Assembly: GCA_001821395.1 (NCBI GenBank)
Contig: MHLM01000001.1
Span: 96,001 to 160,000 of the forward strand
DNA length: 64,000 bases
Source: Candidatus Lloydbacteria bacterium RIFCSPHIGHO2_02_FULL_50_18
Lineage (GTDB): Bacteria; Patescibacteriota; Minisyncoccia; Phycocordibacterales; UBA6899
Reading direction: 5' to 3'
The position numbers were made by a program, and so were the translations under genes. Under the pieces are notes generated by a model. It saw only the letters and a program-made list of their open reading frames with translations, was not told the origin of the DNA and did not search any database. Of the stretch, positions 11,556 to 47,880 are shown one piece after another. The first letter of the stretch is position 1; the number at the start of each line of letters is the position of its first letter.

Positions 11556-12029
11556 CTACTTCGGCGTATCTGTTGCTGTTCCTGTCTGAAGCGAGAGATT
11601 TGCGAGTCCGTGCTGCAAAAATTCCTTATCATACATGTCGGCCCTTTCTTCAAGCAGATTCTCATAATTCTCTTCAGACATTTTTTCCTTAACGTCTTTC
11701 CCGTGCATCGCTTCGACATCACGCTCGGCAAGTTTCTCCGACAAGAGTTCAACCATGACATGGAGATCGTATTCATCCATCAACTTGTTCACTTCGGGGT
11801 CGTTCTCAAATACGCGCGAAGGATGATGATGCTCTTCACCCGCCAGCTTGTGTCGTGAAGTAGCCGCTGGATACCCGGCATCTTTTGCACGCGAAAAGAC
11901 GTACTGCTCAAGATCATCATACGCTACCTCAAAATCAATATCGCGATGACCGTTCGCGACCGTATTCGCTATATAGACCATCCGTAAAAGGGTCTTGAAT
12001 TGTTCGGGGGTGAATGCAAGTCCTATCAT
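11556..12029 (-). CDS. Hypothetical protein (157 aa)
   Basis: Acidic, helical ORF with no recognisable motif. Confidence 0.45.
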   Translation of the reverse strand: MIGLAFTPEQFKTLLRMVYIANTVANGHRDIDFEVAYDDLEQYVFSRAKDAGYPAATSRHKLAGEEHHHPSRVFENDPEVNKLMDEYDLHVMVELLSEKLAERDVEAMHGKDVKEKMSEENYENLLEERADMYDKEFLQHGLANLSLQTGTATDTPK

Positions 12030-22387: not shown

Positions 22388-24091
22388 TCATAAGGGCGTC
22401 AGACCGACACTAAAGACATGTTTCACCGTGGAGCCAGACGTCCCAATGCTATCGATAACCCCCGTTACTCCCGGTGCAACAATGAACCTGCGATAACTGG
22501 CCCTCGAGAAATCTGATGTGTTTGCACCGCGATCGTAATCTTCGGTCCACCCGCCCCCCTGCGTGAGCGGATTGGCAAACGTGCGCACGGTGGTAGTGTA
22601 CATGCTTGCAAAGACGAGCACTGTTGTGTTGGCGGTTGGAATCGTCATTGATGCGGCACGATAGGTCGTATTACTGACCACGTATTTCGTATTTGAAAAT
22701 ACAGAAATGGGATTTAAGACATCAAAGCAACCACGATATGCGGATAGCGTTACTGCGATCTTTGAGGCGGCGCTAAATCCAAATGTATAATTTGCCCCCT
22801 CAGCCGCTCCTGCGATCTTGTAATAGAGTGCCTGATTGTAGTTACCATTCCTGTGACGGCCGACAAGATTCCATCCAGCGGGTATCACCGACAATCTATC
22901 GATATTTGCGGCAGGATTATGAAGGATGTGAGCAAAAAGAATATCCCCCGCGGCGACTCCGGTTGGCTTCGTTACAACCGCTGAAGCAGATGACGCAGAA
23001 TCGTACACGGTTGGAATACCGACCGGTGCTGAGGCAACAACGCAAGTAGCTGCACCCGTCGTAAATGTTCCATCAGCTGAATAGCCCGTTCCCGTGGTGT
23101 TTATCGCATAGCCACGATAGTAGTACGTCGTTGCTGCAGTGAATCCCGTACGTGCCTGGGTAAATATGCCAAGCGTCGTTCCTCCTTCCGCGACACAATT
23201 TGTCGTAGGTGCGGGTGTTGTTCCCCAACATATTCCGCGCTCTCCGATCGAGGCCGGAATACCGAGTGACGTGACGTTTGCTCCAAGTGTCGCGGTCGTC
23301 TCGGTAATAAGGGCTGCGGTTGGAGTAGTAACCGTGGGGATCACATATTCTTCATACGTAATAGTGCATAATTTTGTGTCGCCATTGGCAAGCATAATGC
23401 TATTTCCAAGGCAATCAGCAGAAAGTGTCAGAGCGTAATTGGGGTCGATCGTTGTCAAAAAAGTGTACACACCGGGACCGAGCGTCATCGTGAACGGTGA
23501 ATAAACGATCGGAATATTCACGGTATTCTGCACGGGTGGTTCTACGGAATTATCCCACGCCAACGTCTGAAGACTATTGGGAAGGAAGTCGCCGAGGACT
23601 TTTGTACCACCATGATTCACTACCGTCTTGTTCACCGTGAGCCCAATATTGAGCGGTGCACGCCAATTCGTAAGATACGTATCCATGGCAACCGTGTGAA
23701 TTCCTAGAACCTGGTCTTCCCACGAAACGACCGTATGTATCCTCTTTTGATCGCTATTGACGGTCGAGAGCGTGACCGTTCGCGAGAAAATACCCTGCAC
23801 ATCGAATGAACCGGATAGGGCCCAAACATTAGCGAGATTGGCGAGACCATAAGTGCCGTCGGGCAAATTTACGAAATCATACTGCGCATCGCGCAGATTT
23901 CTTATTATCTCAAAAGATGCTTCGGCAAGAAAAGCGGCTCTCTCACTGTTCGCGACATGTCGCGCATTACGTGCAACGGTTGTTGTGGCACCTATTGTAG
24001 CAACAACAAAAACCATAAACACTGATAATGCGATCAGTATCTCGATCAAAGAAGATCCGCGACTATTAATATGTGATGGTACCTTTTGCAT
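22388..24091 (-). CDS. Large type IV pilin-like protein (567 aa)
   Basis: N-terminus RG|SSLIEILIALSVFMVFVV is a prepilin motif with Glu5. The long Thr/Gly/Ala-rich beta-rich C-region suggests a minor or tip pilin or an adhesin. Confidence 0.7.
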   Translation of the reverse strand: MQKVPSHINSRGSSLIEILIALSVFMVFVVATIGATTTVARNARHVANSERAAFLAEASFEIIRNLRDAQYDFVNLPDGTYGLANLANVWALSGSFDVQGIFSRTVTLSTVNSDQKRIHTVVSWEDQVLGIHTVAMDTYLTNWRAPLNIGLTVNKTVVNHGGTKVLGDFLPNSLQTLAWDNSVEPPVQNTVNIPIVYSPFTMTLGPGVYTFLTTIDPNYALTLSADCLGNSIMLANGDTKLCTITYEEYVIPTVTTPTAALITETTATLGANVTSLGIPASIGERGICWGTTPAPTTNCVAEGGTTLGIFTQARTGFTAATTYYYRGYAINTTGTGYSADGTFTTGAATCVVASAPVGIPTVYDSASSASAVVTKPTGVAAGDILFAHILHNPAANIDRLSVIPAGWNLVGRHRNGNYNQALYYKIAGAAEGANYTFGFSAASKIAVTLSAYRGCFDVLNPISVFSNTKYVVSNTTYRAASMTIPTANTTVLVFASMYTTTVRTFANPLTQGGGWTEDYDRGANTSDFSRASYRRFIVAPGVTGVIDSIGTSGSTVKHVFSVGLTPL

Positions 24092-24527
24092 TGATGATAA
24101 TATTCCTTACACCAAAACTATTCGTGAGCGTTACCGAACCTGCCCCACCCGTGTTTCCCGTAACTTTCTCGAAGACGATCTCGGAAAGCCCTCCTGCGAA
24201 TACGCCACTCGGCAGGTCGAGCTTCTGGTCTGCTGAGATATCTCTTAGGGCATAGACCCCACCCTTAAAGACGACCACGGAACTCGTAAGTAATGCTACC
24301 CCCCATGGTGAGTCGGCTTTCCCCGACTCCGCATTCGCCTGTGCGTGACGGAGCGCCCCGACGACTCCCATCGTCGCGATCTCGAGATTTTCATGAGCCT
24401 TGAAACTGCCGTAGACTGTTATGGAGACCGCAGTAAGCAACATTATAATGCCAACGACCACGATCAACTCGACGAGTGTGATCCCACGGTGTGATGATCC
24501 TTTAATTGATCTGACTTGATAGTCCAT
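24066..24527 (-). CDS. Type IV pilin-like protein
   Basis: Start MDYQVRSIKGSSHRG|ITLVELIVVVGIIMLL is a prepilin motif. Confidence 0.7.
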   Translation of the reverse strand: MDYQVRSIKGSSHRGITLVELIVVVGIIMLLTAVSITVYGSFKAHENLEIATMGVVGALRHAQANAESGKADSPWGVALLTSSVVVFKGGVYALRDISADQKLDLPSGVFAGGLSEIVFEKVTGNTGGAGSVTLTNSFGVRNIIINAKGTITY

Positions 24528-25638
24528 ATAGTGGTCCCATGATAGCGAGCACAATAAAGCCGACGATCAGACCCACCACGATCAAAACGATCGGTTCTAA
24601 TATGGTGGCAAGATCACGCGACATTGCGTCTGTTTTTTCTTCAAAAATAATACCGATGCGGATGAATGTTTCCGACAACTTCCCGGACTTTTCGGCGGAG
24701 ATAATAAGCTGCTGTATCGGAATGGGAATGAATCGATCTATGTTCAGTAGACTGCCAAATGCTTCTCTGAACGATTCCCCGCGGAGCACGCTTGATTGCA
24801 GGTGCTCATAAAACCTTGCGTATGAGTCATATGATGTCCCTCTTTTGACCGAATCAAGCGCGTCAGCAACCGGGAATCCGGCTTGCAAAAGCACGCCGAA
24901 GATATACCCGAAACGCGCAACCTCGACCCCCTGCACGAGATCTTTTATCCCTGGTATGTGAAAAAGAATTACATCGCCGATGAATTTGGTTCTTTTATAA
25001 AAAAAACATGTATATACCAGAAGACCGATAGCGATGACGGATATAGGCACCGCAAAAGCACCATACTGCTCAAAGAAAGAGCCCATAGAGACCAATATTC
25101 TCGTCGCAAGAGGAAGCTCTCCCTTTGTTTCTGAAAAAATAGCGACAATCTTCGGTAGCACGAGCCACGCACTTCCCAGTGCGATGATAAGAGCGAGAAA
25201 AAAGACGATGCCCGGATACAACAATGCGGACCGGAGTCGTGAGTGGAACATCTTCTCTTTGTGCTGCTGAACGGTGACAAGATTCAAATGATCTGACAGC
25301 CTTCCCGCCTCCTCACCCGAACGAATGAGCGAGATGATGCGTTCTGAAAAAAGTTTTGTCTCCGAAAACGACCTCCAAAGCGGCATTCCCGAATTCACCA
25401 TCGACTCGATCGCAGCGGTAATCTTCTTCATCTTGCGTGTCTTGACCGAAAGACTGAGTGCTGCAAGGGCTGCGGATATCCCCATACCGGAAGAAATGAG
25501 CAGGCTCAAGTTTTCGATGAAATAGTCACGCTCATCACCGAAACCAACACTGAGGTACGGCCAGTCGGGGCGATATTCGAATGGGACTTCTTTAAAACCC
25601 TCATGTTCACGCGATTTTCGAAATTTTATTTGTTGCAT
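24502..25638 (-). CDS. pilC: Type IV pilus assembly platform protein PilC (GspF family)
   Basis: 378 aa with two GspF repeats and 3 TM helices. Confidence 0.8.
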   Translation of the reverse strand: MQQIKFRKSREHEGFKEVPFEYRPDWPYLSVGFGDERDYFIENLSLLISSGMGISAALAALSLSVKTRKMKKITAAIESMVNSGMPLWRSFSETKLFSERIISLIRSGEEAGRLSDHLNLVTVQQHKEKMFHSRLRSALLYPGIVFFLALIIALGSAWLVLPKIVAIFSETKGELPLATRILVSMGSFFEQYGAFAVPISVIAIGLLVYTCFFYKRTKFIGDVILFHIPGIKDLVQGVEVARFGYIFGVLLQAGFPVADALDSVKRGTSYDSYARFYEHLQSSVLRGESFREAFGSLLNIDRFIPIPIQQLIISAEKSGKLSETFIRIGIIFEEKTDAMSRDLATILEPIVLIVVGLIVGFIVLAIMGPLYGLSSQIN

Positions 25639-25647
25639 GGTCGTTTA

Positions 25648-27294
25648 TTAAGAACCGACAACACGAAGCACTTCTTCGATGGTTGTCATACCAGCTTTTA
25701 CTTTTTCGATGCCATCCTCAAACATGGAGACGAATCCCTGGCTCTTGATGAGCGCCATCACGTCTTTGGTCGACGGGCTCTTTGCAATAAGATTTTGTAG
25801 CTCAGGAGAGGTGCTTAAAAACTCAAATACTCCGATACGCCCCTTATACCCAGTATGCGAACAAACCTCACAGCCGTTTCCCTTATAAAGGGTCGCCCCA
25901 TCCTTAAAATGTCGGGCAACCTCCGAGCCAAACGACTCGAGCTCAGCGACCTTGTTTATGCGAAAACTTACCTTACACGAATCACAAATTTTGCGTACGA
26001 GCCTTTGACCAACGATCAACTCGAGCGTCGAGCCGACCAAAAATGGCTCAACGCCCATATCGATGAAACGTGGGATTGCTGTTGCCGCATTATTGGCGTG
26101 AAAGGTCGAAAGCATTAGATGCCCCGTCAACGCTGCGTTGACCGCGATATCAGCCGTTTCAAGATCGCGGATTTCTCCGACAAAGATGGTGTTCGGGTCT
26201 TGACGCATGATCGCGCGAAGTCCGTTTCCGAACGTCAGATTCGTCTGAGTATTGACCTGGATCTGATTTATTCCGTGGATCTTATATTCGACCGGATCTT
26301 CGATCGTCGTGATGTTCGTGCCCCTCGTATTGATGATCTTGATGATCGAGTAGAGCGTTGTTGTCTTACCGCTCCCCGTAGGACCAGTTACTAGGATCAT
26401 GCCGAACGGCTTCTTTGCGCTTTTAATGATCTGTTCCTGTAATGCGAGAGATAATCCAATGTCACTCAGACCGAGATCACGGACGGATGAAGAAAGAATG
26501 CGGATAGCGACCTTTTCCCCGTCGAGCGTAGGAACTATCGACACCCGGAGGTCGACCATCTCTGTGTGACTCGGAGATGCGTAGCGAATGACCCCGTCCT
26601 GTGCACTGAAATGCTCATCGATACGTAACTTGGACTGGACCTTCAAACGATTGACGATATTCTCATAGTATTCTTTCGGCATTTCGCCGACATCATGAAG
26701 TACGCCGTCTATCCTGAAGCGGATGACAACGCGATGCTCTTCGGGTTCACAATGAATATCGGACACCTTGAGCAGTAACGCCTCCTCAAATATCTGATTG
26801 ATGATCTCCGGAGCTGCACGCCCCTTGCTATCGATGATCTTCGCGAAGATCGCCCCTAATCCCAGATGGTAGTTCGCAAAGATAGCATCAATTTCATCAG
26901 GGATTGCGAGAGTGATCGTCAGTTTTTTATCGGGAAATAGCGGCTGCAGATTCGCCAAGAGTTCTTCCTGTGTGGGGTCATCAGTTGCGATGACTACGTC
27001 TGAACCTTTTTGTGAATAAACTACCGTACGATATTTTTTGGCAAGCTCCTCGGGAATAAGAAAAACCTGTTCTTTTCTGGGGCTGTGCGCTTCGAGATCG
27101 GAATAAGAAACCCCGAAAGACTCTGCGAATGCCTGACCGATGATTGCCCTCGAAAGCAAGCCCTGACCGAGCAAATAATCAACGAATGAACCGCGATGTT
27201 CTTTCGCGTATTCTTCCGCGATTGCAATATCTTTTTCTTCGATATAATTCCCGGCAAGAAGAACTTTTTTGATCGCTTCGTCATTAAAATTCAT
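25648..27294 (-). CDS. pilB: Type IV pilus assembly ATPase PilB (GspE family)
   Basis: Walker A GPTGSGKTTTLYS, Asp and His boxes, and a tetracysteine CDSC...CEVC. Confidence 0.85.
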   Translation of the reverse strand: MNFNDEAIKKVLLAGNYIEEKDIAIAEEYAKEHRGSFVDYLLGQGLLSRAIIGQAFAESFGVSYSDLEAHSPRKEQVFLIPEELAKKYRTVVYSQKGSDVVIATDDPTQEELLANLQPLFPDKKLTITLAIPDEIDAIFANYHLGLGAIFAKIIDSKGRAAPEIINQIFEEALLLKVSDIHCEPEEHRVVIRFRIDGVLHDVGEMPKEYYENIVNRLKVQSKLRIDEHFSAQDGVIRYASPSHTEMVDLRVSIVPTLDGEKVAIRILSSSVRDLGLSDIGLSLALQEQIIKSAKKPFGMILVTGPTGSGKTTTLYSIIKIINTRGTNITTIEDPVEYKIHGINQIQVNTQTNLTFGNGLRAIMRQDPNTIFVGEIRDLETADIAVNAALTGHLMLSTFHANNAATAIPRFIDMGVEPFLVGSTLELIVGQRLVRKICDSCKVSFRINKVAELESFGSEVARHFKDGATLYKGNGCEVCSHTGYKGRIGVFEFLSTSPELQNLIAKSPSTKDVMALIKSQGFVSMFEDGIEKVKAGMTTIEEVLRVVGS

Positions 27295-27859: not shown

Positions 27860-29320
27860 TTATGATCCTTTATGCGATGCCTCCTCGAGCTTCTCCTTAA
27901 GATCGGCTATCTCTTTTTTTAATTCGGTCATCTTCAACTCCCGTCCGATCATGAATTTATTCATCTGCTCGGTTTCTTTCATCATTTTTTTCAGATCGTC
28001 CGTTCGCACGGCCACTTTCACTTCAAGACTCTTGTCTTTTTCCTCGAGTGATCGCTTGAATTCTTCCGTCCTGTCTAAGACTTCTTTTTCAAGATATTTA
28101 CTTTTTTCTTCCATCACTTTTTCCAATTCTTTCGTGCGTTCACGCACCTTGTTCTCAAGGGCCGTAAAGGTATCCCCCAAGCTAGTAGTCATAGCATTCA
28201 TCGTTTCAGCGAGTTCGCCGAATTCATCGTCCGTCTTGACCTCTACCCGCTGGGAAAAATCTCCCCTCTTGATCGCCTCCGACAGTGACCGTAATTTTGA
28301 AAGCGGGCTAATAAAAATGATTATTGCACGATACGTCAAAAAGGAGACGAGCAAGATACCTAACAAAAAAATCGCGATGATCTTCATGACAATCGACAGT
28401 ACGGTGTCTTCAACACCTTGCATCCCGATCTCTGAGACCAGGTAGAATGGGAGGTCGTCAAATTTGATCACTGAAATATTCTCGTTTTCGTTATCTTTCG
28501 GATCAAAATAGTTTATTGTGACACTCCCGGTGTAGGTATCTATGATCTTTTGCACCTCGTTATATTGAAGCGGTACCACCTCTTTGCCAAGCAACTTATT
28601 CGTCTCTGCGATTAATGCGGAATTCTCAGGAGAAAGAGCGCCGATGCTTTTTAAAAAACGATCCGGGCGGTTTGAGACCAAAATGATGCCAAAACCATCA
28701 GTAAGCATTACGGAACTTGTGTTTGACAGCTCACTGCGCAAGATCGAATTGTCGATCTCAGTATTACTAGCCTTGACCACCACAATTCCGATCACAGTAC
28801 CACCGTCATCTTTTACTGGATAAGAAAAATAATAACCAAATTGATTACTTACGCTGCCGATCGCGTTATCAATATACGCTTCGCCGCGCATTGCAAATTT
28901 ATAATAATCGCGAAAACTATAATTCTGACCGACGAAACGCACATCTGTTGAAACAACACCTGAGCCGTGAGTATCCAAGAGGTAAATGGCAAGATACTTG
29001 CTGTTTTCCTTTGTGTAACCTGAAAAAACATCTAAAAGTTCTTTCCCTTTCGTCTCGTTCGGATTGAGGAAATACTCTCTCACCAGGGAATTCGTCCCAA
29101 GCATTTTTGAAAAAAGCTGATCGGTCTTAATGATCTGAGCGGTATAGTGGACCTGTTCGATCGCTATCTTGTTGATGTTGCTGATGTTCCCTTCAATGAG
29201 CGCGATATTGACGTAGAAATAGGTGACGAGCGTCGTAAGCGCGCATAAAAAAATAGACAATAAAACAAATAGGATCGTGATCTTTGCTCGTACTGAAGAA
29301 ATTCGGATCTTGGGTAACAT
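27860..29320 (-). CDS. Cache-HAMP signalling protein with C-terminal coiled coil (kinase-less paralog of 13105-14925)
   Basis: The N-terminal 370 aa are about 70% identical to the 13105-14925 protein (the same FLCxLT...YVN(I/F)AL(I/V)EGNI(S/N)NIN and YFSYPVK blocks). HAMP is followed by a 110-aa heptad-rich charged coiled coil with no HATPase. Confidence 0.7.
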   Translation of the reverse strand: MLPKIRISSVRAKITILFVLLSIFLCALTTLVTYFYVNIALIEGNISNINKIAIEQVHYTAQIIKTDQLFSKMLGTNSLVREYFLNPNETKGKELLDVFSGYTKENSKYLAIYLLDTHGSGVVSTDVRFVGQNYSFRDYYKFAMRGEAYIDNAIGSVSNQFGYYFSYPVKDDGGTVIGIVVVKASNTEIDNSILRSELSNTSSVMLTDGFGIILVSNRPDRFLKSIGALSPENSALIAETNKLLGKEVVPLQYNEVQKIIDTYTGSVTINYFDPKDNENENISVIKFDDLPFYLVSEIGMQGVEDTVLSIVMKIIAIFLLGILLVSFLTYRAIIIFISPLSKLRSLSEAIKRGDFSQRVEVKTDDEFGELAETMNAMTTSLGDTFTALENKVRERTKELEKVMEEKSKYLEKEVLDRTEEFKRSLEEKDKSLEVKVAVRTDDLKKMMKETEQMNKFMIGRELKMTELKKEIADLKEKLEEASHKGS

Positions 29321-29432
29321 AGAGGTCTTTCTTATGAAAAAACGTCACACGTGTCGTTGCTATAATGATAGCACCAATGGCCATTGAACAAAAATAACTG
29401 GGGCACGAAGTTCCCCGTATATGATCAGGGCG

Positions 29433-29825
29433 CTACGCACCGTAGGGATTGCTGCCATTCGCCCAACTTGATTCGAGATAGACCGCAGGACTGTCGGGGA
29501 GGAGTTTTCCCGTTTGCATATTTTGGATATGTACAAGCGGAGTTGCTCCGCCATTGCGCGCGATGATGACCCAGCTTAGTTCCGGATGTTGCTCTGCTAC
29601 TTCGCCATACATGAATCCACGAAATGCGTCAGTTCCGGAATCAATCACCATTGCCTCGGGGAAATTGTGAGCGATGTTTCTCGCCACTGCACTTTCAGCC
29701 AAGATCGGCAGATCGCGAAATTCCAGATGGGTTCCTTTTATTTTTTTTTGCAGCCAAACTGCGCGATAAGCGGACGGACCGCCTTCATAGTGTTCATTCT
29801 GGTTGATCTGTTCAAAATTATTCAT
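29433..29825 (-). CDS. Hypothetical protein (130 aa)
   Basis: ORF with no recognisable motif. Confidence 0.4.
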   Translation of the reverse strand: MNNFEQINQNEHYEGGPSAYRAVWLQKKIKGTHLEFRDLPILAESAVARNIAHNFPEAMVIDSGTDAFRGFMYGEVAEQHPELSWVIIARNGGATPLVHIQNMQTGKLLPDSPAVYLESSWANGSNPYGA

Positions 29826-29864
29826 AGTCTCTGTAATTATACAATACGTGAGCCCTTGGATTCA

Positions 29865-29899
29865 ATTATATCTTTATTATATACGTCTCCCCCATGCAG
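29865..29899. repeat. 35-bp direct repeat, copy 1 (copy 2 at 34287-34321)
   Basis: ttatatctttattatatacgtctcc(c/g)ccatgcagc, 34/35 identical. Confidence 0.85.
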
Positions 29900-29937
29900 C
29901 ACACCTCTTAAATATTAGCGCTGAGACTGTTCAAAGT

Positions 29938-29954
29938 GCTGCGGGGCTTGGAGT
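29938..29954 (-). repeat. Partial copy of the tRNA-Gln 3' end (att-like direct repeat)
   Basis: ctgcggggcttggagtc versus ctgcgggacttggagtc at the 3' end of the intact tRNA-Gln (35899-35915): 16/17, same orientation. Confidence 0.7.
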
Positions 29955-30250
29955 CACCCACATGTCCTGACAAAAAGATATTCACTACAATCTTTTTGCT
30001 GAATGAATCGGTCTCGGAAAAATCATACCAACCACAGTGGGGATATACCACCCCTTCTACTCTCGTAACTAGGCGTCTCGGTCACTATTTCATTCATAAC
30101 GCCGGCGGCGCCACTGTCTCTCTCAAATTTTCTGGACAAAATGCTCGCACGACCAACAAGGGGTTTGTCTACTCACCAGAAAAGTACAGAATATAGGTAT
30201 CCCCCTGCCAACTTGGGAGTATGCACAGAAATAAAATCAATACCCGCTGG

Positions 30251-30913
30251 CTAATCCTCTTTTTCTATGAGACCGTCTTTCAACCAAATCACTCGGTCCA
30301 TATACTTTCTATCCTCCGGCTCGTGGGTGATCATAATGATGGTCTGATTGAGCTCCTTGTTCAGCTTCTGAAAAAGCCGATACACCACCTCCGATGAAAC
30401 CGTGTCGAGATTTGCAGTTGCTTCATCTGCAAAGAGTATTTTGGGGCTATTAATGAGGGCCCGCGCAATCGCAACGCGCTGTTGTTCACCGCCTGACATC
30501 TCTCCAGGGTAATGATGCAGTCTCTCTTCTAATCCCACAAGCTTCAAGAGTTCTGAAGCTCGTTCCTCGTTATGCGTACCACCAAGGGCCATTCCGGGAA
30601 AATAAACATTCTCAAGTGCAGTAAATTCAGCAATAAGCGCATACTCCTGAAATACATACCCCAAATGATTAAGACGAAATGAGGTGCGCTCAGCATCAGA
30701 AAGGGCAAGAATATCAACATTATCGATGAGCACTGTGCCGGATGTCGGAATATCAAGAAGTCCCAATTGATGCAAGAGTGTTGATTTACCGGATCCACTT
30801 CTCCCCATGAGCGCGACAAACTCGCCCTTCTTTATTTCAAACGAAACCCCCCTCAACGCTCGAGTTGGAACTTCTCCGGGATATGTCTTTGTAAGATTGT
30901 TTACCTTGATCAT
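30251..30913 (-). CDS. ABC transporter ATP-binding protein (MacB/LolD-like)
   Basis: Walker A GRSGSGKSTLL, signature LSGGEQQRVAIARAL and Walker B ILFADE. Confidence 0.85.
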   Translation of the reverse strand: MIKVNNLTKTYPGEVPTRALRGVSFEIKKGEFVALMGRSGSGKSTLLHQLGLLDIPTSGTVLIDNVDILALSDAERTSFRLNHLGYVFQEYALIAEFTALENVYFPGMALGGTHNEERASELLKLVGLEERLHHYPGEMSGGEQQRVAIARALINSPKILFADEATANLDTVSSEVVYRLFQKLNKELNQTIIMITHEPEDRKYMDRVIWLKDGLIEKED

Positions 30914-30924
30914 AATGAATGTGT

Positions 30925-32157
30925 TTAACCCCAGATTGATCTTAAGATATTCTGCCTCGCTACCATTTTTGCAGGAATAAATCCCGCAAAGATTCCCGAA
31001 ATAGTAAGACTGATAATGTTGATAAAAATCTCAATGGGAGTGTACACCAAACTTGCGCTCCCAAACGGCATCGGAATTGGCCGCATTTGCAACAGTGGGA
31101 CCACAAGGGAAAAAACAATCAAAAGCCCCAGCATGGTTCCAAGAGTGACATAGAAAAGGGACTGGAGAACATACGATACCTCGATGATACTTTCCTTGAT
31201 GCCGATTGCTTTTAATATGCCAATTTGTCTGCGCTTGTTCACTGCGTTCACATAAATCATCACAAAGATTGTGATTGCGGCAACAATAATACTAATGACT
31301 GTGACAATAACCGCGATAATATCGAATGCATCAACAAGAATACCGACGGTACTAAGGCGATTCGTGTATTTTTCGATCTTTAAGTTTGGCGCTATCGCTC
31401 CAATCTGCTCGGCGTACTCATCGAGTGTTCCTCGGCCAAGATCCATTCGTACCATGATCTCTGAAGCATTGTCATAAACCGACAATATGGACTCCGCCTC
31501 CTCTGCTGAAATGAATGCAGTGCCTCCAACCGACCCACCCATGCTGATCTTAAATATTCCCCTTATCGTATACGTTCGGGTGATGCCATTGGAATAGGTC
31601 ACCTGGACTTCATCTCCGACAATGGCGCCACCAAGGTCTGATGTTTGCTTTGTCCCAAATCCGCCGGAGAGATTTGCTCCGAGTACGATCTCGTCATTTT
31701 TCAGATCATCTGGGAATTCACCAGAAACGATATTTTTATAGACCGTGAGGATCTTTTTTTCCTCCGATTGAGTCACGCCAACTACTGGTGCAGAGACTCG
31801 CTTGAATTCACCCATCTTTTCCTTGTCATACGCGAACGAACCACCCAACTGATAGTGTCGAGCCGTTCCAATAACTCCAGGAATTGTTCCGATCTGCGCA
31901 CGCACCTTCTCTTGGTTCAAGATAAATTCCTTGACCGTCGGTTCCTCTTGCGGCATGACAATAATATGCGCAGTCGAATTGTCTATCATTGACCGCATGA
32001 TCCCGTCAGAAAAACCGTTCAGAAATCCGGAGACAAACATCAAATTGAAGAATGAGAGAGATAAAATAAATACAGTGAAGACTGCCGTAGACTTATTGCC
32101 CCTCGTGATAGTTTTATAAGCAACAAAAAATGCTGTTTTCAAGTCAGTTCCATTCAT
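30925..32157 (-). CDS. ABC transporter permease (FtsX/MacB-type)
   Basis: 410 aa with an N-terminal TM, a large periplasmic domain and a C-terminal 3-TM FtsX-like region. Confidence 0.75.
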   Translation of the reverse strand: MNGTDLKTAFFVAYKTITRGNKSTAVFTVFILSLSFFNLMFVSGFLNGFSDGIMRSMIDNSTAHIIVMPQEEPTVKEFILNQEKVRAQIGTIPGVIGTARHYQLGGSFAYDKEKMGEFKRVSAPVVGVTQSEEKKILTVYKNIVSGEFPDDLKNDEIVLGANLSGGFGTKQTSDLGGAIVGDEVQVTYSNGITRTYTIRGIFKISMGGSVGGTAFISAEEAESILSVYDNASEIMVRMDLGRGTLDEYAEQIGAIAPNLKIEKYTNRLSTVGILVDAFDIIAVIVTVISIIVAAITIFVMIYVNAVNKRRQIGILKAIGIKESIIEVSYVLQSLFYVTLGTMLGLLIVFSLVVPLLQMRPIPMPFGSASLVYTPIEIFINIISLTISGIFAGFIPAKMVARQNILRSIWG

Positions 32158-32160
32158 GAT

Positions 32161-33711
32161 CTATTTTTGCTTTTTCTCAGCACCAAGAATAACCTGATCT
32201 CCATCGAAAAGACCCGAAATGATCTCGATCATACCGACATCGTTCTCGATGCCCGTATGTACCTCTGTCTCTGTCACCTGACCATCCGTAAGCGTCTGCA
32301 CTATCTTTTTTCCATCCTTGCTTTGTACGGCACTCGCGGGGACAAAAAGTGCATCTTCTGAAATTGCAGTGTTGATCCACACATTAGCCGTCATCCCCGA
32401 TCGAATGCGTTCGTCCACCTTGTCGAACAATATCGTTGTCTGATAATACACGGCACCGCCAATAATTGTCTCAACGGGATCAATAGTAACGACCTTTCCG
32501 CTAAATTCCTCATCTTCAATGGCATCAAACGTGATCCTCGCCTTCTGTCCAATACGTACATTCACAATCTTGTCTTCGACGACATTTAATTGTATTTGCA
32601 ATGCACCACCTGCGGCAAGTGACACTACAATTATGTCTGCACCAACAACCTCACCAACCTCACCCCGGACGTTCGTTACCATGGAGGATACCGGTGCAGA
32701 GATCGTCAAATCCCTCCTCTGTGCTTCTGTCCTCGTAAGGGAAGCTTCTGCTTGTATGATTTGCGCCTGATACACGGCAATATCCGACGACCTTGCCGGG
32801 GCAGTCTTTAGGGTGAGCTGATTCTCTGCGATGTGGAGGGCTGATTCTTTCATTTGGAGATTTTCTTCCGCAAGAAGAAGGTTTGACAGCGCAATGTCAA
32901 CATTCGTTCGCGCTGTGGAAATATCAGTCTTCCACTTATCGATTGTCGCTTGAGTAATCTTGGAACTTGGAGTAAGCGCGTTTACCATCAAGGCCTCATT
33001 CACAAGAAATGCCTTTACCTGTGAGGTATTTTTTTTAGCAAGAGTTGTTGCCAGAACAAGATCGCTCTCCGCTGAAACCTCCGCGAGACTTCCAGCCCAC
33101 TCATTGAGTGTCACCTCGATCCCAACCCTCGCCTCTAGTACCGCGCGCTCAAGTTGCATATCGAACGGAAAACTAAAGAGTAATTGTGGATTAGATGTTT
33201 TAGGATTATCGAACAATTGGTCAGACCTTGCTCGCACTGCGTCATCGGACCGAGTATAGGCACCTTGTAATCTATCAATCATATTCTTCTTTGCATCAAG
33301 AAGTGACTGCTCGGCATTATACACTGCAGTCTCAGAGATACTCACGTCTTCGGGTGACGCTCCACTTAATAGCTGACTTAATTTTGCCTTCTGAAGGTCT
33401 ATTCCCGCTTGCATTTCTTTTACCTGTGCATCGAGCTGAGTGGTATCTTGTTTGGCGAGAAGTTTGCCTGCTGAAATCTTGTCACCAACACGCGCATTCA
33501 AAAAAACAAGCTTGCCGCTTCCCTTGAAGCGCAAGTCAATCTGTGTTGGAGATTCGACTTTTCCACTTGCAGAAACCTCCTGAACAATATCCCCTCTTTT
33601 TGCAACCGCAAGAGTGTAGGAAGGAGCATTCAAACGCTGCATCAAAAAAATGCCGCTAATAGCCAGGGCAATCAGGGTTCCCAATGCGGTAAATAAGATT
33701 TTCTTGTTCAT
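32161..33711 (-). CDS. HlyD-family periplasmic adaptor (membrane fusion protein)
   Basis: N-terminal TM, a biotinyl/lipoyl-like beta hairpin, long coiled coils and a C-terminal beta-barrel region. Confidence 0.75.
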   Translation of the reverse strand: MNKKILFTALGTLIALAISGIFLMQRLNAPSYTLAVAKRGDIVQEVSASGKVESPTQIDLRFKGSGKLVFLNARVGDKISAGKLLAKQDTTQLDAQVKEMQAGIDLQKAKLSQLLSGASPEDVSISETAVYNAEQSLLDAKKNMIDRLQGAYTRSDDAVRARSDQLFDNPKTSNPQLLFSFPFDMQLERAVLEARVGIEVTLNEWAGSLAEVSAESDLVLATTLAKKNTSQVKAFLVNEALMVNALTPSSKITQATIDKWKTDISTARTNVDIALSNLLLAEENLQMKESALHIAENQLTLKTAPARSSDIAVYQAQIIQAEASLTRTEAQRRDLTISAPVSSMVTNVRGEVGEVVGADIIVVSLAAGGALQIQLNVVEDKIVNVRIGQKARITFDAIEDEEFSGKVVTIDPVETIIGGAVYYQTTILFDKVDERIRSGMTANVWINTAISEDALFVPASAVQSKDGKKIVQTLTDGQVTETEVHTGIENDVGMIEIISGLFDGDQVILGAEKKQK

Positions 33712-33824
33712 AAAATACACAAATAATAAAGAGTAAAAAAGACGCAGTCATTTCATTCCACTGCAATTCATCATAATATAAAATATCTTTACAAGCAAGT
33801 TACTTTATGATAAAGTAAACCAAA

Positions 33825-34280
33825 ATGGAACGTAAGGAAACGATAGAAAAACTCATCGCCTCAATACACAAGGAGACTCGGGCTGCGGGGCTTTTTGTGC
33901 ACACTATATCCGAGATCACTGGGATACATTCTACCGACATACGCTGTTTAGAATTTTTAAGTGAGGCACACTCCGCGACTGCCGGAGAACTTGGGAGGGC
34001 TACGGGGCTTACGACAGGGGCAGTCACTGCGATGATCGACAGGCTTGAAAATGGGGGCTTTGTAAAGCGCGAAGCGGATAAAAAAGACCGAAGAAAGATC
34101 ATCATCAGACTCCTGGGAATTCCGAAAAAGCTCAAATTGGTACGGGAAATGTTCTCAAAGCAAATACCCGACATTCTCGCTGAGTACAATACGGCGGAAT
34201 TACTATTGATTGCGAACTGGAACATAAAAATGGCCGCCGTATTTCACGAAAAAATAAGTAAACTCAAAGCAAAAGACTAA
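33825..34280 (+). CDS. MarR-family transcriptional regulator
   Basis: Winged HTH (TAGELGRATGLTTGAVTAMIDRLENGGFV). It is divergent from the efflux operon. Confidence 0.75.
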   Translation: MERKETIEKLIASIHKETRAAGLFVHTISEITGIHSTDIRCLEFLSEAHSATAGELGRATGLTTGAVTAMIDRLENGGFVKREADKKDRRKIIIRLLGIPKKLKLVREMFSKQIPDILAEYNTAELLLIANWNIKMAAVFHEKISKLKAKD

Positions 34281-34286
34281 CATCGC

Positions 34287-34321
34287 TTATATCTTTATTA
34301 TATACGTCTCCGCCATGCAGC
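34287..34321. repeat. 35-bp direct repeat, copy 2
   Basis: See 29865-29899. Confidence 0.85.
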
Positions 34322-34585
34322 GCTTCACAACAAAAACGACATGCGACGTATCTCTTGAATTTATAGGCAACTGAGCCCATTGATCGGGTAATGCCTCGTG
34401 AGACCTCGGAAGCGTATTCTCGCATCGGTTTCCCGTCTTTTGTGCTAAGGTGTCTCGGTTGAGGCCCTCTTGGACGAAATGGGCTTCTGCACAAATGCTG
34501 AAAACCACGTGTGCTCGGTGCGACAAATTGCTATCTTGGCAAAAAAACGATAGCCTTCGAACAGAGCCTGCTGACTGGGGTCATC

Positions 34586-34822
34586 ATGTCATCAATGAAA
34601 TCGGAGTTCCTCAATCATGCAAAATCAATGCTGGAACAGAAGCATGGGAATGTGCTTACGGACGTCGAAAAGCAACTAGTGCTTCAAGCATTTACGGCAT
34701 GGGAGTCACGGTGGAACGATAAGTCGCCGTCATGCACGCTTGATTGCCAGTGGCCGACATTTTCTCAAGAGGAAAAGTGCTCTACAGTGGAACGATTTTG
34801 CAATTCGTATATAAATCCGTAA
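34586..34822 (+). CDS. Hypothetical small protein
   Basis: ORF beginning MSSMKSEFLNHAK, with no SD. Confidence 0.3.
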   Translation: MSSMKSEFLNHAKSMLEQKHGNVLTDVEKQLVLQAFTAWESRWNDKSPSCTLDCQWPTFSQEEKCSTVERFCNSYINP

Positions 34823-35146
34823 ACGAAAGCCGCCGCACAAGAGTGTGGCTTTTTATTTATTTGCTTAATTCAAAAAATAAACATCGTGTCGTGCTAATCG
34901 GTCACTTACGATTTCATGAACGGCCTCTCGGTCATACGAACCTATTCTCGCACTCTGCCTTTCGAAGTGCTGGATGACTCGGTCGCGGATAATTCCTTGT
35001 GAGACGTTGTAAGGATATTCTCACACCCCCTTCACCTCTTGTGCTGATGGGAGTCGGTCAGTAAATATCCCAGAGATTCTTGCTTGCTAAACACAGTGAG
35101 TTCGAGTAGTCTTTGACGCAGAACATTGTTGAGGTAAGGGGTAGTC

Positions 35147-35815
35147 ATGTTGATATATGCCGTAATTGGTACGCTTGTGGTCGCACTGCTCATCTTCTTG
35201 GCGTGCCGTTATTTTCGAAATCATTGCCTCGAGTGCAAAAAGAGGACTGACTGGGACAAATATGACTCCTGCAAAGCGTGCAATGCGGAGCACGAAGCAC
35301 GGGTGTCAAAGCACCGAGAAGAAATGACGGGGCGCATGATTGCGGTCACCCATGAAGTACTTGCACAATCAAGGGCAGAAACGGAAGAATTCGGTTTTAG
35401 TGATTACGATTTCCTCGATAGACCCTGCATGGTCTGTTCGCCTGGCCGGACTACTAGTCACCGAGAACTCTTTCGAGAGCGTGGTCTCGCGGGTAATCCG
35501 CAAGCATGCCAAGATTATTATTGGAACACTCACGTTCCCCTTGCAAGAAAGGCGCACAAAGATCGCGAGTCAAAGAAATTTTGGAAGCGCTGGCTGTACA
35601 TCCCACCGACAAAAGAGGAGGAGGAAGCGGTCAGTCGAGTGAGCTGGTGGCTAAAGAATGCACTCAGTGCGGGTCGTGACGATCTTGCCCAGCTACGCGA
35701 GTACCGGACGTATCACGAAAAGCCTGACCATTGGATGGACATGACTACCAAACAACTCATGGAGCGCCGACTCTCGCGCGCAAAGAAGGCACTAGATTTA
35801 AATATTGATCGGTAA
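35147..35815 (+). CDS. Hypothetical membrane-anchored zinc-ribbon protein
   Basis: N-terminal TM helix, then CLECKK...CKACN. A terminator follows at 35826-35850. Confidence 0.5.
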   Translation: MLIYAVIGTLVVALLIFLACRYFRNHCLECKKRTDWDKYDSCKACNAEHEARVSKHREEMTGRMIAVTHEVLAQSRAETEEFGFSDYDFLDRPCMVCSPGRTTSHRELFRERGLAGNPQACQDYYWNTHVPLARKAHKDRESKKFWKRWLYIPPTKEEEEAVSRVSWWLKNALSAGRDDLAQLREYRTYHEKPDHWMDMTTKQLMERRLSRAKKALDLNIDR

Positions 35816-35825
35816 TGTTTATTTC

Positions 35826-35850
35826 GGGGCCATTAGCGCCCCTTTTTGTT
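35826..35850 (+). terminator. Rho-independent terminator
   Basis: ggggc-cattagc-gcccc followed by tttttgtt. Confidence 0.7.
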
Positions 35851-35898
35851 ATACAAAATATCTTATGCCTCTCGGTCATCCGAACCGATTCTTGATAG

Positions 35899-35969
35899 CT
35901 GCGGGACTTGGAGTCGAACCAAAATTGACGGATTCAAAGTCCGCTGTCCTACCATTAGACGATCCCGCA
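35899..35969 (-). tRNA. tRNA-Gln (anticodon UUG)
   Basis: Manual fold: acceptor UGCGGGA/UCCCGCA with U1-A72 (typical of bacterial tRNA-Gln), anticodon loop CU-UUG-AA, and T-arm UUUGG-UUCGACU-CCAAG. No encoded CCA. Confidence 0.8.
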
Positions 35970-36046
35970 ATAACAGGATAATAGCATTTTATATACGAAA
36001 GACAAAAAAACCGCCGTTACTACGGCGGTGACTGCTTCAACCGATA

Positions 36047-36451
36047 TCACGAATCGCACAATGTCCATTTTGCAGGATTATTCGTATGCTTTGATTGCGT
36101 AATTACCGCCCATTGTGGATCACCATGATTGTGAACGGGGGTAATCGTCTGCAGTGTGTATTCACCCATTTTCTGACTCATGTCTGACCTAAAAACATCA
36201 TCATTGGTGATAGTGCTCGGGTCCCTCTCCGGATGAATACTCGCAAAGAATTCCCTTCGCCAGCCGCGGAGGTCCCCTGTCACAATTGTTCTCTGTACAA
36301 AGATGAATTCGGGACCTGCATTGCAAATGAAATTATAGCGGTGGCCCGTCCCGTCTTCGATCAGGGAAGCATAGGGCGGCAGATTCAGGAAGATGTCTCT
36401 ATTGATCACGGGGTACTCCCCTAGGATGGTGTTTGCATCTCCAGAAACCAT
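36047..36451 (-). CDS. Hypothetical protein (paralog of 36546-36920)
   Basis: Shares the blocks FVQRTIVTGDLRGW and AVITQSKHTNNP with the neighbouring ORF. An alternative TTG start at 36475 is possible. Confidence 0.5.
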   Translation of the reverse strand: MVSGDANTILGEYPVINRDIFLNLPPYASLIEDGTGHRYNFICNAGPEFIFVQRTIVTGDLRGWRREFFASIHPERDPSTITNDDVFRSDMSQKMGEYTLQTITPVHNHGDPQWAVITQSKHTNNPAKWTLCDS

Positions 36452-36545
36452 AATACCAAATATGTATTTTGGCAACTATATATAAAAAATTCACCGCCGA
36501 AATTCGGAGGTGAATGGAGGGTGAAAAGTAAAAAATTAAGAGTGC

Positions 36546-36920
36546 TCAACTCTTAAACCAATCGCGGGGATCGTTCACCATGAACTTCTGAGTGACGATC
36601 ACCGCTTCCGGATTTCCTTCTCGATCACGGACGATTACTTCAACATAAAAAGCACCATAATTTTCCCGCACATCCATCTTGAGCATATCCCCTTGTTTCA
36701 AAGCACGAGGATCTGCATTCACGAGACAAGCATTTTCTTGCTTCAGCCAACCGTTAAAGTGGCGGATAACAATAGTGCGCTGTACATACAGCCGCTGCTC
36801 GTCGATGAACGCCAGGACCGCAAGTTCTTCTCGAGTACCGATTTTACAAATAGTATCGAGCGCAAATACACCGCGAAATGATTCCATCTTTGCCTCTTCT
36901 TGAGGTGGAACAAACAACAC
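36546..36920 (-). CDS. Hypothetical protein (paralog of 36047-36451)
   Basis: YVQRTIVIRHFNGW and AVIVTQKFMVNDP blocks. A terminator hairpin lies at about 36489-36520. Confidence 0.5.
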   Translation of the reverse strand: MLFVPPQEEAKMESFRGVFALDTICKIGTREELAVLAFIDEQRLYVQRTIVIRHFNGWLKQENACLVNADPRALKQGDMLKMDVRENYGAFYVEVIVRDREGNPEAVIVTQKFMVNDPRDWFKS

Positions 36921-47007: not shown

Positions 47008-47880
47008 ATGGGATATACAATCAGACAACTTTCCGACCAGGAGTTCCCTCCCCAGCTTCTCGAAATACCCGAGCCCCCGAAAGAATTATGGCTCGCCGGT
47101 GAACTCCCATCACCCGATACAGTGCTCCTTACCGTCGTCGGTGCACGCAAGCACACCTCGTACGGAAGAGAAGCATGCGAGGAAATCATTGCGGGGCTTG
47201 CGGGATACGACATCACCATTGTCTCCGGACTCGCCATTGGCATTGATGCGATCGCGCACGAGTCGGCGATACGCGCAGGACTTATGACCATCGCTGTTCC
47301 GGGATCGGGACTTGACCCTCGTGTGCTTTATCCGCGCACCAATTACCAACTTGCCGAGCGGATTCTTGAAGCAGGCGGTGCGCTGCTTTCTGAGTTTGCA
47401 CCCGATACCCCTCCTGCTCCGTGGACGTTCCCAAAGAGGAATCGCATCATGGCGGGTCTTGCCCGCGCGACACTCCTTATCGAAGCACAAGAAAGATCCG
47501 GTACGCTCATCACCGCGCGACTTGCCACGGACTATAACCGAGAGCTTCTCGTTGTGCCTGGAAGCATCTTTTCTCCGCTTTCAAAAGGAACGAATCAATT
47601 CATCGCACTCGGGGCAACGCCGGTGACCTCCGCCGCCGACGTGCTCCGAGCGCTTGGATTTAACACTGAGGATATGGCGGAAAAAGTAGAGATCGATCTT
47701 TCACAATTCCCTTCCGATGAGCGAGCAGTGCTTGAGCTCCTCACCGAGCCACTGGAGCGTGAGCGGCTCATTACGCAAATGGGGGTAAGCGCGAGCGATG
47801 CGAATGTGCTTTTGATGAGACTCGAGATCAATGGATACATATCGGATACACCGGAGGGCATTCGCAGGAACTATATATAA
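47008..47880 (+). CDS. dprA: DNA-processing protein DprA (Smf)
   Basis: Rossmann-like VVGARKHTSYGREACEEIIAGLA...VSGLAIGIDAIAHE. Classic dprA-topA synteny. Confidence 0.85.
   Translation: MGYTIRQLSDQEFPPQLLEIPEPPKELWLAGELPSPDTVLLTVVGARKHTSYGREACEEIIAGLAGYDITIVSGLAIGIDAIAHESAIRAGLMTIAVPGSGLDPRVLYPRTNYQLAERILEAGGALLSEFAPDTPPAPWTFPKRNRIMAGLARATLLIEAQERSGTLITARLATDYNRELLVVPGSIFSPLSKGTNQFIALGATPVTSAADVLRALGFNTEDMAEKVEIDLSQFPSDERAVLELLTEPLERERLITQMGVSASDANVLLMRLEINGYISDTPEGIRRNYI

Follow-up and report, generated by a model that had tools for sequence, protein, structure and literature searches.

Within the window, by which we mean the whole 64-kb stretch of DNA that was analysed, a variable region lies beside a tRNA-Gln gene and holds an efflux operon, its neighbouring marR gene, other accessory genes and several short repeats. 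Its features are as follows:

29433–29825, minus strand: u130, a 130-aa orphan accessory gene with no function assigned
29836–29865, minus strand: best sigma-70-like promoter of u130, TTGAAT-18-TATAAT (10/12 consensus match), abutting R1 from outside
29866–29900: R1, copy 1 of a 35-mer, adjoining the -35 box of the u130 promoter on its upstream side
29901–29937: spacer a, 37 nt from R1 to the tRNA fragment T', unrelated to the sequence adjoining R2
29938–29962, minus strand: T', a degenerate second copy of the tRNA-Gln 3' end (17/18 over 29938–29955, then an indel)
29963–30250: stretch c, 288 nt of non-coding DNA between the ABC stop codon and T'
30251–30913, minus strand: ABC ATPase (Pfam)
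30925–32157, minus strand: FtsX permease (Pfam)
32161–33720, minus strand: MFP (Pfam)
33800–33818: 19-bp perfect palindrome TTACTTTATCATAAAGTAA in the marR-MFP intergenic region
33825–34280, plus strand: marR regulator gene (Pfam), divergent from the efflux operon
34287–34321: R2, copy 2 of the 35-mer, its first base 7 nt past the marR stop codon (last base 34280)
34322–34822, plus strand: segment b and a small ORF (34511–34822, or from the ATG at 34586)
34923–34948: S2, a 26-mer that matches the sequence next to the tRNA 3' end at 24/26 positions
35147–35815, plus strand: 222-aa orphan gene, Cys-rich, with an N-terminal TM helix and its own terminator
35867–35892: S1, a 26-mer ending 5 nt short of the tRNA-Gln 3' end
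35898–35969, minus strand: tRNA-Gln(ttg), T, the proximal anchor of the variable region (ARAGORN, Rfam)

The MFP, FtsX and ABC genes (30251–33720) form a MacAB-type efflux operon, which is kept as a unit in the relatives' loci L098–L124. T' is the distal att-like repeat of the island, and its alignment score was reached by 0 of 2000 shuffles. A second tRNA fragment (T'') was considered beside S2 and is not significant, while a weak third copy of the S motif, S3, is found in stretch c at 30070–30084 (26 of 2000 shuffles). The small ORF that follows segment b has its own terminator at 34832–34849 and no Pfam match. Homologs of the 222-aa gene (51–64%) occur in unrelated contexts, one of them adjoining a gene with an rve domain. 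The locus also carries a dCache/HAMP paralog. The motif GTCTCGGT in the non-coding DNA of the island was unconvincing as a recurrent element (56 observed vs 42 expected). No Phage_integrase, Resolvase, rve or DDE match was found in the island or in window ORFs of at least 150 aa, and no integrase gene lies in the islets examined around the module. Terminal inverted repeats were not found, and the insert ends ACACCTCTT... and ...ACATCGC are not inverted repeats of each other.

The 35-mer reads TTATATCTTTATTATATACGTCTCC[C/G]CCATGCAGC. Its two copies, offset by 4421 nt, share 34 of 35 bases, which confirms what an earlier, sequence-only reading of this DNA had reported; that reading also placed copy 2 correctly, starting 7 nt after the marR stop, and set copy 1 one base too low. 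No match of this kind appeared in 100 shuffles. Outside the 35 nt no similarity was detected on either side by gapped self-BLAST and alignment, and the sequences adjoining the GC-rich ends of R1 and R2 (a and b) proved unrelated when aligned. The same arrangement is present in the same-population contigs L001–L015, which were assembled independently (ENA, Logan, JGI) and are all identical, with no population variants at the junctions; therefore the repeat is not an assembly artefact. Recurrent contig ends fall at 34387/34391, 35042 and 35969, and samples containing this population include SRR3989338 and the runs underlying ERZ27254752 and ERZ28563591. By alignment the 35-mer is unrelated to tRNA-Gln, neither strand folds stably above background (z-scores -0.5 to +1.2), and the tRNA is the only RNA family that an Rfam search matched. 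A core, GGNGACGTA, common to the 35-mer and the inner 16-mer repeat of L116 occurs at chance frequency (8 observed vs ~9 expected). The repeat is real and non-random, and it is an ordinary feature.

Even with up to 13 mismatches allowed, the window holds no third copy, and none was found in 9.2 kb more of the genome on one side (73 kb of the ~1 Mb host genome in all), in 1.52 Mb of relatives' loci or at any of 27 other module loci. The core also gave zero matches in GTDB genomes, IMG/VR and JGI metagenomes, counts which are weak evidence because the organism's own contigs evidently lie outside those three collections. The search for further copies that had been proposed as a check on the sequence-only reading thus speaks against a generic dispersed repeat.

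It had also been suggested that the 35-mer looks like a portable promoter or recombination site, based on a minus-strand -10-like box in copy 1. This box, TATATAAT, is indeed present at 29883–29876, although it lies 51 nt upstream of the ATG at 29825 and not ~45 nt. The promoter idea is not supported, since a sigma-70 consensus scan detected no -35/-10 pair within either copy, and the best promoter, which is the top match across 29300–36600, lies one base outside copy 1, occurs once and is not included in the duplication. On the minus strand downstream of copy 2 there is only antisense marR. A recurring promoter motif, TTGAATCCAAGG, was not enriched.

Only two homologs of u130 were found, both diverged and each in a different context. 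The homolog at locus L016 has 77% amino acid identity and another upstream neighbour than in the window, and the promoter is kept there as TTGAAT-18-TATCAT. Nucleotide homology to L016 extends to window position 29889 and so covers the AT-rich ~24 nt of R1, at an identity of only ~65–70%, leaving the GC-rich 11 nt uncovered. Because this AT-rich part aligns with the same upstream region in L016, copy 1 is probably the native flank of u130.

The efflux genes behave differently from their surroundings. In more than 20 relatives the conserved module consists of four genes only (marR-MFP-FtsX-ABC), with homology stopping at the marR and ABC stop codons, and what surrounds the module differs in every relative. 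The marR copies that adjoin the efflux operon there are 55–82% identical. Judged from these comparisons, marR-MFP-FtsX-ABC is a horizontally mobile four-gene module. In L124 a distance of 114 nt separates the marR stop from a tRNA-Gln 3' end, and L099 has the same junction; in L122 the module is bracketed by tRNA-Gln-like fragments and in L116 by a 23-mer of the tRNA 3' end. The usual boundaries of the module are therefore tRNA-Gln 3'-end repeats (L122, L124, L099, and T/T' here) and not the 35-mer, which none of the modules in the 20+ relatives carries. This speaks against the 35-mer as a cassette boundary, as it had been proposed to be. The synteny comparison proposed alongside it does bring out the mobility of the module, but it could not supply an empty site: followed through the pilus ATPase gene, synteny led to GTDB relatives of no more than ~70% identity at best. 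One of them, L020, carries a diverged efflux operon at this position, lacking marR, u130 and the dCache gene, and the distance is too great for such a reconstruction.

Homology to L098, L099, L122 and L124 stops at 34267–34286. For L099, L124 and L122 it passes the stop codon, the last common bases being GCGA (34283–34286), and R2 begins at 34287. The marR terminator hairpin of L099 and L124 is missing here, and copy 2 stands in its place. Along the window the order is R1 (29866), T' (29938), R2 (34287) and tRNA-Gln (35898), and therefore the two pairs of repeats, 35-mer and tRNA, interleave, with copy 1 outside the tRNA-bounded island. The nested structure that the sequence-only reading had drawn inside this island is not what is found, while its broader point, that the repeat is tied to DNA rearrangement of the efflux/MarR genes beside tRNA-Gln, is supported. 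Such interleaving is as expected if two alleles with a common flank were joined in tandem; it does not suit a simple nested insertion.

The explanation that we lean toward, with somewhat more belief than doubt, is that the 35-mer may be a recombination scar: a flank common to two versions of the tRNA-Gln region would have been retained in duplicate as these were linked in tandem, whether through a single crossover or through one-ended illegitimate recombination. Copy 1 would be ordinary chromosomal flank upstream of the -35 box of the u130 promoter and downstream of a tRNA-Gln integration hot spot. The efflux islet would originally have been bounded by the intact tRNA (T) and by T' at 29938–29962, and its tRNA-proximal junction would then have been replaced by ~1.6 kb of other accessory DNA (S1, the 222-aa gene, S2, the small ORF and segment b) ending in copy 2. 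In the simplest history a tandem join brought together two alternative versions of the region, and as both would have ended in the same flank (35-mer, promoter, u130), that flank would have been kept twice. One possible route is that a circular intermediate integrated by a single (Campbell-type) crossover within the 35-bp identity, a length that counts against the reading, being close to the lower limit for RecA-dependent exchange. Another is one-ended, homology-facilitated illegitimate recombination of incoming DNA; the window encodes DprA and type IV pilus genes, which is compatible with DNA uptake. A scar should have one native copy, and homology to L016 does run into R1, at modest identity; it should also end where homology breaks, as R2 does at 34287 for four module relatives. 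Neither of the parental alleles, tRNA-spacer-marR...T'-a-R-u130 or tRNA-...-b-R-u130, was found among the genomes and contigs searched, collections that lack this MAG and its close relatives, and the history given here, with its order of events and its recombination pathway, is therefore a reconstruction.

One alternative, which we consider unlikely, is that the 35-mer pair was left over incidentally from several independent rearrangements, for example a partial duplication of the region upstream of u130 that was later trimmed by deletions, with no direct link to the arrival of either the module or the 1.6 kb. The locus is heavily rearranged, as its dCache/HAMP paralog, S1/S2 repeats, tRNA fragments and orphan genes attest, and this would suit such a history. 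Yet it requires more events than one junction-forming recombination, and the end of copy 2 matches the homology breakpoint of the module to the nucleotide.

Less likely again is that the 35-mer is the attL/attR core of a site-specific recombinase encoded elsewhere, so that a 4.4-kb unit (marR to ABC plus c, T' and a) would move as a circle. A near-perfect direct repeat does bracket a module known as mobile, its 35 bp are typical of an att identity block, and direct repeats bracket other copies of the module too. However, no recombinase gene is present in the 4.4-kb unit or in the whole 64 kb, and what brackets the module in relatives is either a tRNA 3'-end repeat or some unrelated sequence, in no case the 35-mer, which is itself unrelated to the tRNA. 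An excised or empty form is also absent among the same-population contigs L001–L015. A repeat that marks an integration target is expected to recur at the ends of the element in other hosts, and this is seen for the T/T' pair but not for the 35-mer.

The last alternative of some substance concerns regulation, and here the palindrome at 33800–33818 has to be considered. It is probably the MarR operator: it is kept in L098, L099, L122, L123 and L124 and is unique within the window at up to 1 mismatch. An operator-like site at 2433–2451 falls inside the recR coding region and is probably due to chance. The 35-mer holds CTTTATTATATAC, which differs by 2 mismatches from the operator core CTTTAT-N-ATAAAG; in CTTTAT-T-ATATAC one half-site is perfect and the other matches at 4/6, a comparison made post hoc. 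The likeness is reached by 0.2–0.8% of composition-matched shuffles (p ~0.002–0.008; post hoc, as one among some five ideas tested), and the 35-mer thus bears a weak resemblance to the MarR operator, which makes for a minor rival. This rival would have the 35-mer be a regulatory element under selection in two places, as a MarR-binding site, an UP-element or a promoter part, with u130 and any transcription entering the module from the marR end answering the same signal. Copy 1 lies at about -37 to -71 from the likely start site, a range in which UP elements and activators operate, and the 35-mer carries a TATAAT. Still, we regard this reading as improbable. Equally good chance matches to the operator occur elsewhere, the likeness is weaker in L016 (4 mismatches, by inspection), the internal TATAAT has no -35 partner at either copy, copy 2 faces only antisense marR, and identity as high as 34/35 is a sign of duplication rather than of convergence. 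A pure scar model, for its part, does not predict that the 35-mer should beat most shuffles in its likeness to the operator core, and this counts against the scar.

A much bolder proposal, which we hold to be very unlikely, is that the DNA downstream of tRNA-Gln serves these CPR bacteria as a cassette-exchange hot spot, integron-like but without an integron integrase. Small promoter-bearing units, which could be the 222-aa gene, the small ORF, the efflux module and u130, would be added serially in a recombinase-independent or trans-acting way, with the 35-mer and the 26-mer S as reusable crossover sites. Hardly credible at all is a dispersed REP- or MITE-like repeat or a transposon target-site duplication, for which nothing speaks beyond the 35-mer being a short intergenic repeat, given its count of only two in 73 kb and of zero in the relatives and collections searched, its lack of a hairpin (z-scores as above), the absence of terminal inverted repeats and of a transposase, and a length of 35 bp that far exceeds the 2–15 bp of known target duplications.

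The 35-mer itself carries little weight, as duplication at a junction is typical of recombination around acquired DNA. As one consequence, the R1/R2 pair could support RecA-mediated loss of the 4.4-kb segment. Of more general interest is that a marR-regulated MacAB-type efflux module moves as a discrete four-gene unit among Parcubacteria/Lloydbacteria and usually lands at tRNA-Gln 3' ends, with no integrase close by. A streamlined groundwater CPR genome keeps a layered variable region beside tRNA-Gln, and this offers a concrete and testable case of accessory gene acquisition by ultra-small, probably naturally transformable bacteria. The 19-bp perfect palindrome, in addition, offers a clean candidate for a MarR operator.

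Several known systems can be compared with this locus. Integron cassette arrays likewise consist of small mobile units set in series, each with its own promoter or terminator and with short repeats between them. In contrast to attC sites, the 35-mer shows no imperfect palindrome or hairpin, no IntI was found, and the repeats between the units differ from each other (T, S and R). tRNA-linked islands of the tyrosine-integrase type are closer, since T/T' bracket the module here, as equivalent repeats do in L122 and L116, and in L124 and L099 the module directly adjoins the tRNA end. This fit applies to T/T' and not to the 35-mer, which is unrelated to the tRNA, and the islets examined hold no integrase gene.

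Homology-facilitated illegitimate recombination, or sequential displacement, is known from Acinetobacter, S. pneumoniae and P. stutzeri, and one-ended illegitimate insertion beside a conserved anchor was proposed for the arrays of T6SS effector-immunity modules in V. cholerae (PMC5361080). Unlike those systems, the present organism offers only DprA and the pilus genes as features compatible with natural transformation. As in them, modules pile up serially by a conserved anchor, which here is tRNA-Gln at one end and the u130 flank at the other. Of the two junctions, one would be homologous and one illegitimate, with remnants of earlier flanks left behind. Campbell-type integration is the other close parallel. 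It was shown experimentally in E. coli that a single crossover of a circle duplicates the common homology on both sides of the insert (PMC3240628). The duplicated homology there is 109–950 bp (PMC3240628), whereas here it is 35 bp and the circle is hypothetical. In both cases, as the scar reading has it for this locus, the direct repeat is the stretch common to insert and target, with one copy being the native target; an element-encoded recombinase is unnecessary, and the repeats can mediate the loss of the insert again.

The genome of a groundwater Candidatus Lloydbacteria bacterium from Rifle (CPR/Parcubacteria) carries the 35-mer TTATATCTTTATTATATACGTCTCC[C/G]CCATGCAGC twice on one strand, at 29866-29900 (R1) and 34287-34321 (R2), 4421 nt apart and with 34/35 positions identical. 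This is the identity already reported by the sequence-only reading, in which the coordinate of the first copy was one base too low. No other non-coding repeat of the 64 kb is as perfect as this pair, and chance is ruled out (a match in 0/100 shuffles). The identity ends abruptly on both sides, and the segments that flank the GC-rich ends of the two copies (a and b) are mutually unrelated. No third copy is found within the window, even allowing 13 mismatches, and neither half repeats there; the sequence-only reading had also considered a generic repeat with many copies elsewhere, and none was seen beyond the pair in 73 kb of the ~1-Mb genome. The arrangement matches base for base in contigs that were assembled independently from this population (L001-L015; ENA, Logan and JGI), hence it is no assembly artefact. 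Neither strand of the 35-mer folds better than background, and no Rfam family matches it. Scanning GTDB genomes, IMG/VR and JGI metagenomes gave zero matches. The organism is evidently missing from these collections: the metagenome contig scan did not return even L007 and L010, JGI contigs that do hold the 35-mer, such that negatives from that collection are not exhaustive. The pilus ATPase of the nearest GTDB relatives is only ~70% identical.

The features of the region are listed here in minus-strand order; the tRNA and the efflux operon are both encoded on this strand.

35969-35898, minus strand: intact tRNA-Gln(ttg), T, first in order
35867-35892, after T: 26-mer S1
After S1: 222-aa orphan gene, antisense to the listed strand
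34923-34948, after the 222-aa gene: S2, second copy of the 26-mer (24/26)
After S2: small ORF, antisense
Between the small ORF and R2: segment b
34287-34321: R2, then 6 nt, then marR (antisense)
33800-33818, between marR and the MFP gene: perfect 19-bp palindrome
After the palindrome: MFP, FtsX and ABC genes, in that order
Between ABC and T': segment c, 288 nt
29962-29938, after c: T', 25-nt fragment of the tRNA-Gln 3' end
Between T' and R1: segment a, 37 nt
29866-29900: R1, then a sigma-70-like promoter, then u130 (130-aa gene, 29433-29825, minus strand), then a dCache/HAMP gene

T' is genuine, with 17/18 identity to the tRNA-Gln 3' end and a score that 0/2000 shuffles reach. On the plus strand the order is R1, T', R2 and T; the repeat pairs interleave and R1 falls outside the tRNA-bounded island, instead of the nested structure that had been proposed. 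The 26-mer, GCCTCTCGGTCAT(C/A)CGAACC(G/T)ATTCT, adjoins the tRNA-Gln 3' end as S1 and recurs 944 nt off as S2, the two copies bracketing the 222-aa orphan gene, and a weak third copy lies near T' (30070-30084; 26/2000 shuffles score equally well). S1 and S2 may be the trace of a separate event resembling that of the 35-mer, or arm-type binding sites. Other tRNAs also have nearby partial duplicates: the tRNA-Leu 5' end (53382-53407 vs 53598-53623, 25/26, 216 nt upstream), the tRNA-Trp 3' end (57386-57422 vs 57554-57590, 76%) and, in the relative L098, a tRNA-Gln with fragments on either side (11305-11358 and ~11537-11567). Such tRNA-fragment scars are common in these genomes.

The marR-MFP-FtsX-ABC unit is present in >25 other contigs, where FtsX is 67-92% identical and the genomic context differs in each. 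The closest copies by nucleotide are those of L098 (76%) and L099 (80.5%), to which the window is homologous from 34267 or 34283 to 30253 or 30261, a span limited to the unit between its marR and ABC stops. In four relatives the alignment with the window continues past the marR stop codon as far as 'GCGA' (34283-34286), which is conserved, and R2 starts at the next base. L099 and L124 have a bidirectional terminator hairpin after marR; the window lacks it. On the ABC side homology ends at the ABC stop codon. In the relatives' module loci (1.52 Mb in total) nothing similar to the 35-mer was found at <=9 mismatches. Since it is absent from these loci and the homology ends before R2, the comparison indicates that the 35-mer is no part of the mobile module, and its earlier description as the boundary of the efflux cassette does not hold. 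In L020 (CAZJQE010000006.1, 6025-9518), the closest of the GTDB relatives that have a long contig, a far more diverged MFP-FtsX-ABC operon (30-54% aa) lies directly upstream of response-regulator and pilus ATPase genes, in position and orientation as in the window; marR, u130 and the dCache gene are missing there, and the genes ahead of the operon encode a GNAT protein and an IS200-like Y1 transposase. About 2-7 kb to the left of the window (L129, 2067-7178), a second marR-type regulator adjoins an efflux system of the RND type (ACR_tran), and the host genome has at least two MarR-linked efflux loci.

In various Parcubacteria the module is bracketed by, or abuts, repeats of tRNA 3' ends, mostly of tRNA-Gln, and these are its usual limits. 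The distance from the marR stop to the end of a tRNA-Gln(ctg) (9251-9322) is 114 nt in L124, where the two genes are oriented to each other as in the window. L099 has this junction in common, starting at the final tRNA bases (~215-235) and continuing inward, but no intact tRNA. Fragments resembling the tRNA-Gln 3' end lie on one strand on either side of the module in L122 (1874-1893 and 6244-6262), and an exact 23-nt direct repeat resembling a tRNA 3' end brackets it in L116 (2559-2581 and 7666-7688). The canonical islet is thus a tRNA-Gln 3' end, a terminator spacer of ~115-125 nt, marR to ABC, 200-290 nt and a tRNA-Gln 3' fragment. L098 and L104 have a tRNA-Gln ~1 kb past ABC, the module of L098 being in the opposite orientation to that of the window. 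The module of L110 is flanked by inverted rather than direct repeats, long ones of ~170 nt or more (~300-560 and 4640-4860; also L111), which could mean that the module is invertible, given the differing orientations to tRNA-Gln in L098 and the window, or could be an artefact of short-contig assembly. In the window the distal half of the islet (ABC, c and T') is intact, with repeats at 35898-35924 on the tRNA side and at T', and in place of the proximal spacer there is a 1.58-kb stretch of different accessory DNA, with R2 at its end. The 222-aa gene of this DNA is found elsewhere in unrelated contexts, once adjoining an rve-domain gene. No integrase gene was seen within the module islets examined in Parcubacteria, and the module behaves as an integrase-less tRNA-associated mobile islet.

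One of the questions is which copy is native. Only two homologs of u130, both diverged, exist among 5.8 billion proteins. One of them, in L016, is 77% identical (aa) and keeps the promoter as TTGAAT-18-TATCAT. Nucleotide homology with the window runs from the u130 stop codon to window position 29889, covering the AT-rich ~24 nt of R1 at modest identity (~65-70% with indels), and then stops. Since the homology runs into R1 although the neighbours differ both upstream and downstream, R1 appears to derive, in part at least, from the ancestral sequence upstream of u130. The neighbouring dCache/HAMP gene (27860-29320) has a recent paralog at a distance of 14 kb (13105-14925); the two are 71% identical (aa) across their first 394 residues and ~80% identical (nt) in blocks, and their C-termini differ. 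In L003 the dCache/HAMP gene beside u130 is split, with a 43-nt length difference.

A portable promoter had been another proposed role, and from the consensus scan this is unsupported, because neither copy contains a -35/-10 pair, TATATAAT inside the repeat (29883-29876) is without an acceptable -35 partner at either copy, and the minus strand downstream of R2 holds nothing but marR antisense. The best sigma-70-like site of the 7.3-kb region (TTGAAT-18-TATAAT, 10/12, 29865-29836) starts one base past the end of R1 and is not duplicated. R1 itself lies at about -37 to -71, a position expected of UP elements and activator sites.

A rival reading takes the 35-mer as a regulatory element. The perfect palindrome between marR and MFP, TTACTTTATCATAAAGTAA, is almost invariant in five diverged lineages by phylogenetic footprinting (L098, L099, L122, L123 and L124), and its half-sites can still be recognised in more distant lineages; it is likely the MarR operator, overlapping the efflux promoter. 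The 35-mer contains CTTTAT-T-ATATAC, two mismatches from the operator core CTTTAT-N-ATAAAG, a match equalled by 0.2-0.8% of composition-matched shuffles; this is the one point in favour. However, the match was found post hoc as one of about five ideas tried, chance sites elsewhere equal it, it is weaker in L016, and regulation would leave 34/35 identity over 35 nt unexplained. A further site with three mismatches to the palindrome (2433-2451; 0.02 expected by chance) lies within the recR coding region and is probably fortuitous. An att site served by a recombinase acting in trans would be an unlikely alternative, and it lacks positive support: no recombinase was found in the window, other copies of the module are without the 35-mer, and the same-population contigs L001-L015 include no excised form. 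Dispersed-repeat and transposon readings failed their defining tests (no third copy in 73 kb, and no structure, terminal inverted repeats or transposase; 35 bp is too long).

The data fit a recombination scar. The island, and all window ORFs of at least 150 aa, lack tyrosine or serine recombinases and transposases, and the segment between R1 and R2 has no terminal inverted repeats. At 35 bp, the repeat far exceeds the known target-site duplications. The tRNA-Gln variable region may once have existed in two versions, (i) the efflux islet followed by T'-a-R-promoter-u130 and (ii) S-222aa-S-ORF-b followed by R-promoter-u130, whose joining in tandem would have retained the shared flank twice. The GC-rich end of the repeat would then be the point where both versions begin to resemble each other, and the new joint with the module would lie at the AT-rich end of R2. 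The joining could have used a circular intermediate and a single crossover via the 35-bp identity, or incoming linear DNA and one-ended, homology-facilitated illegitimate recombination. The window encodes DprA, a DNA-processing protein of natural transformation (47008-47880), and a type IV pilus/T2SS-like cluster (22388-27294), which are compatible with DNA uptake and competence-mediated gene acquisition, a step that we infer. No parental allele of either version was found, and the order of events is a reconstruction. Independent contigs of the same population stop at common points (L012 and L015 at 34387, L014 at 34391, L003 and L004 at 35042, and L002 and L009 exactly at the tRNA-Gln 5' end, 35969), which hints at co-existing strain variants that diverge there. 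What is kept of the sequence-only interpretation is a genuine rearrangement footprint; its promoter, cassette boundary and nesting are given up.

The more useful by-products are the integrase-less, tRNA-Gln-associated mobile efflux islet in CPR genomes and its candidate operator. The feature itself is of a kind already known, a junction duplication in a tRNA-linked variable region: single crossovers duplicate the shared homology on either side of the insert (PMC3240628), and the one-ended illegitimate route was proposed for serial module arrays beside a conserved anchor (PMC5361080).
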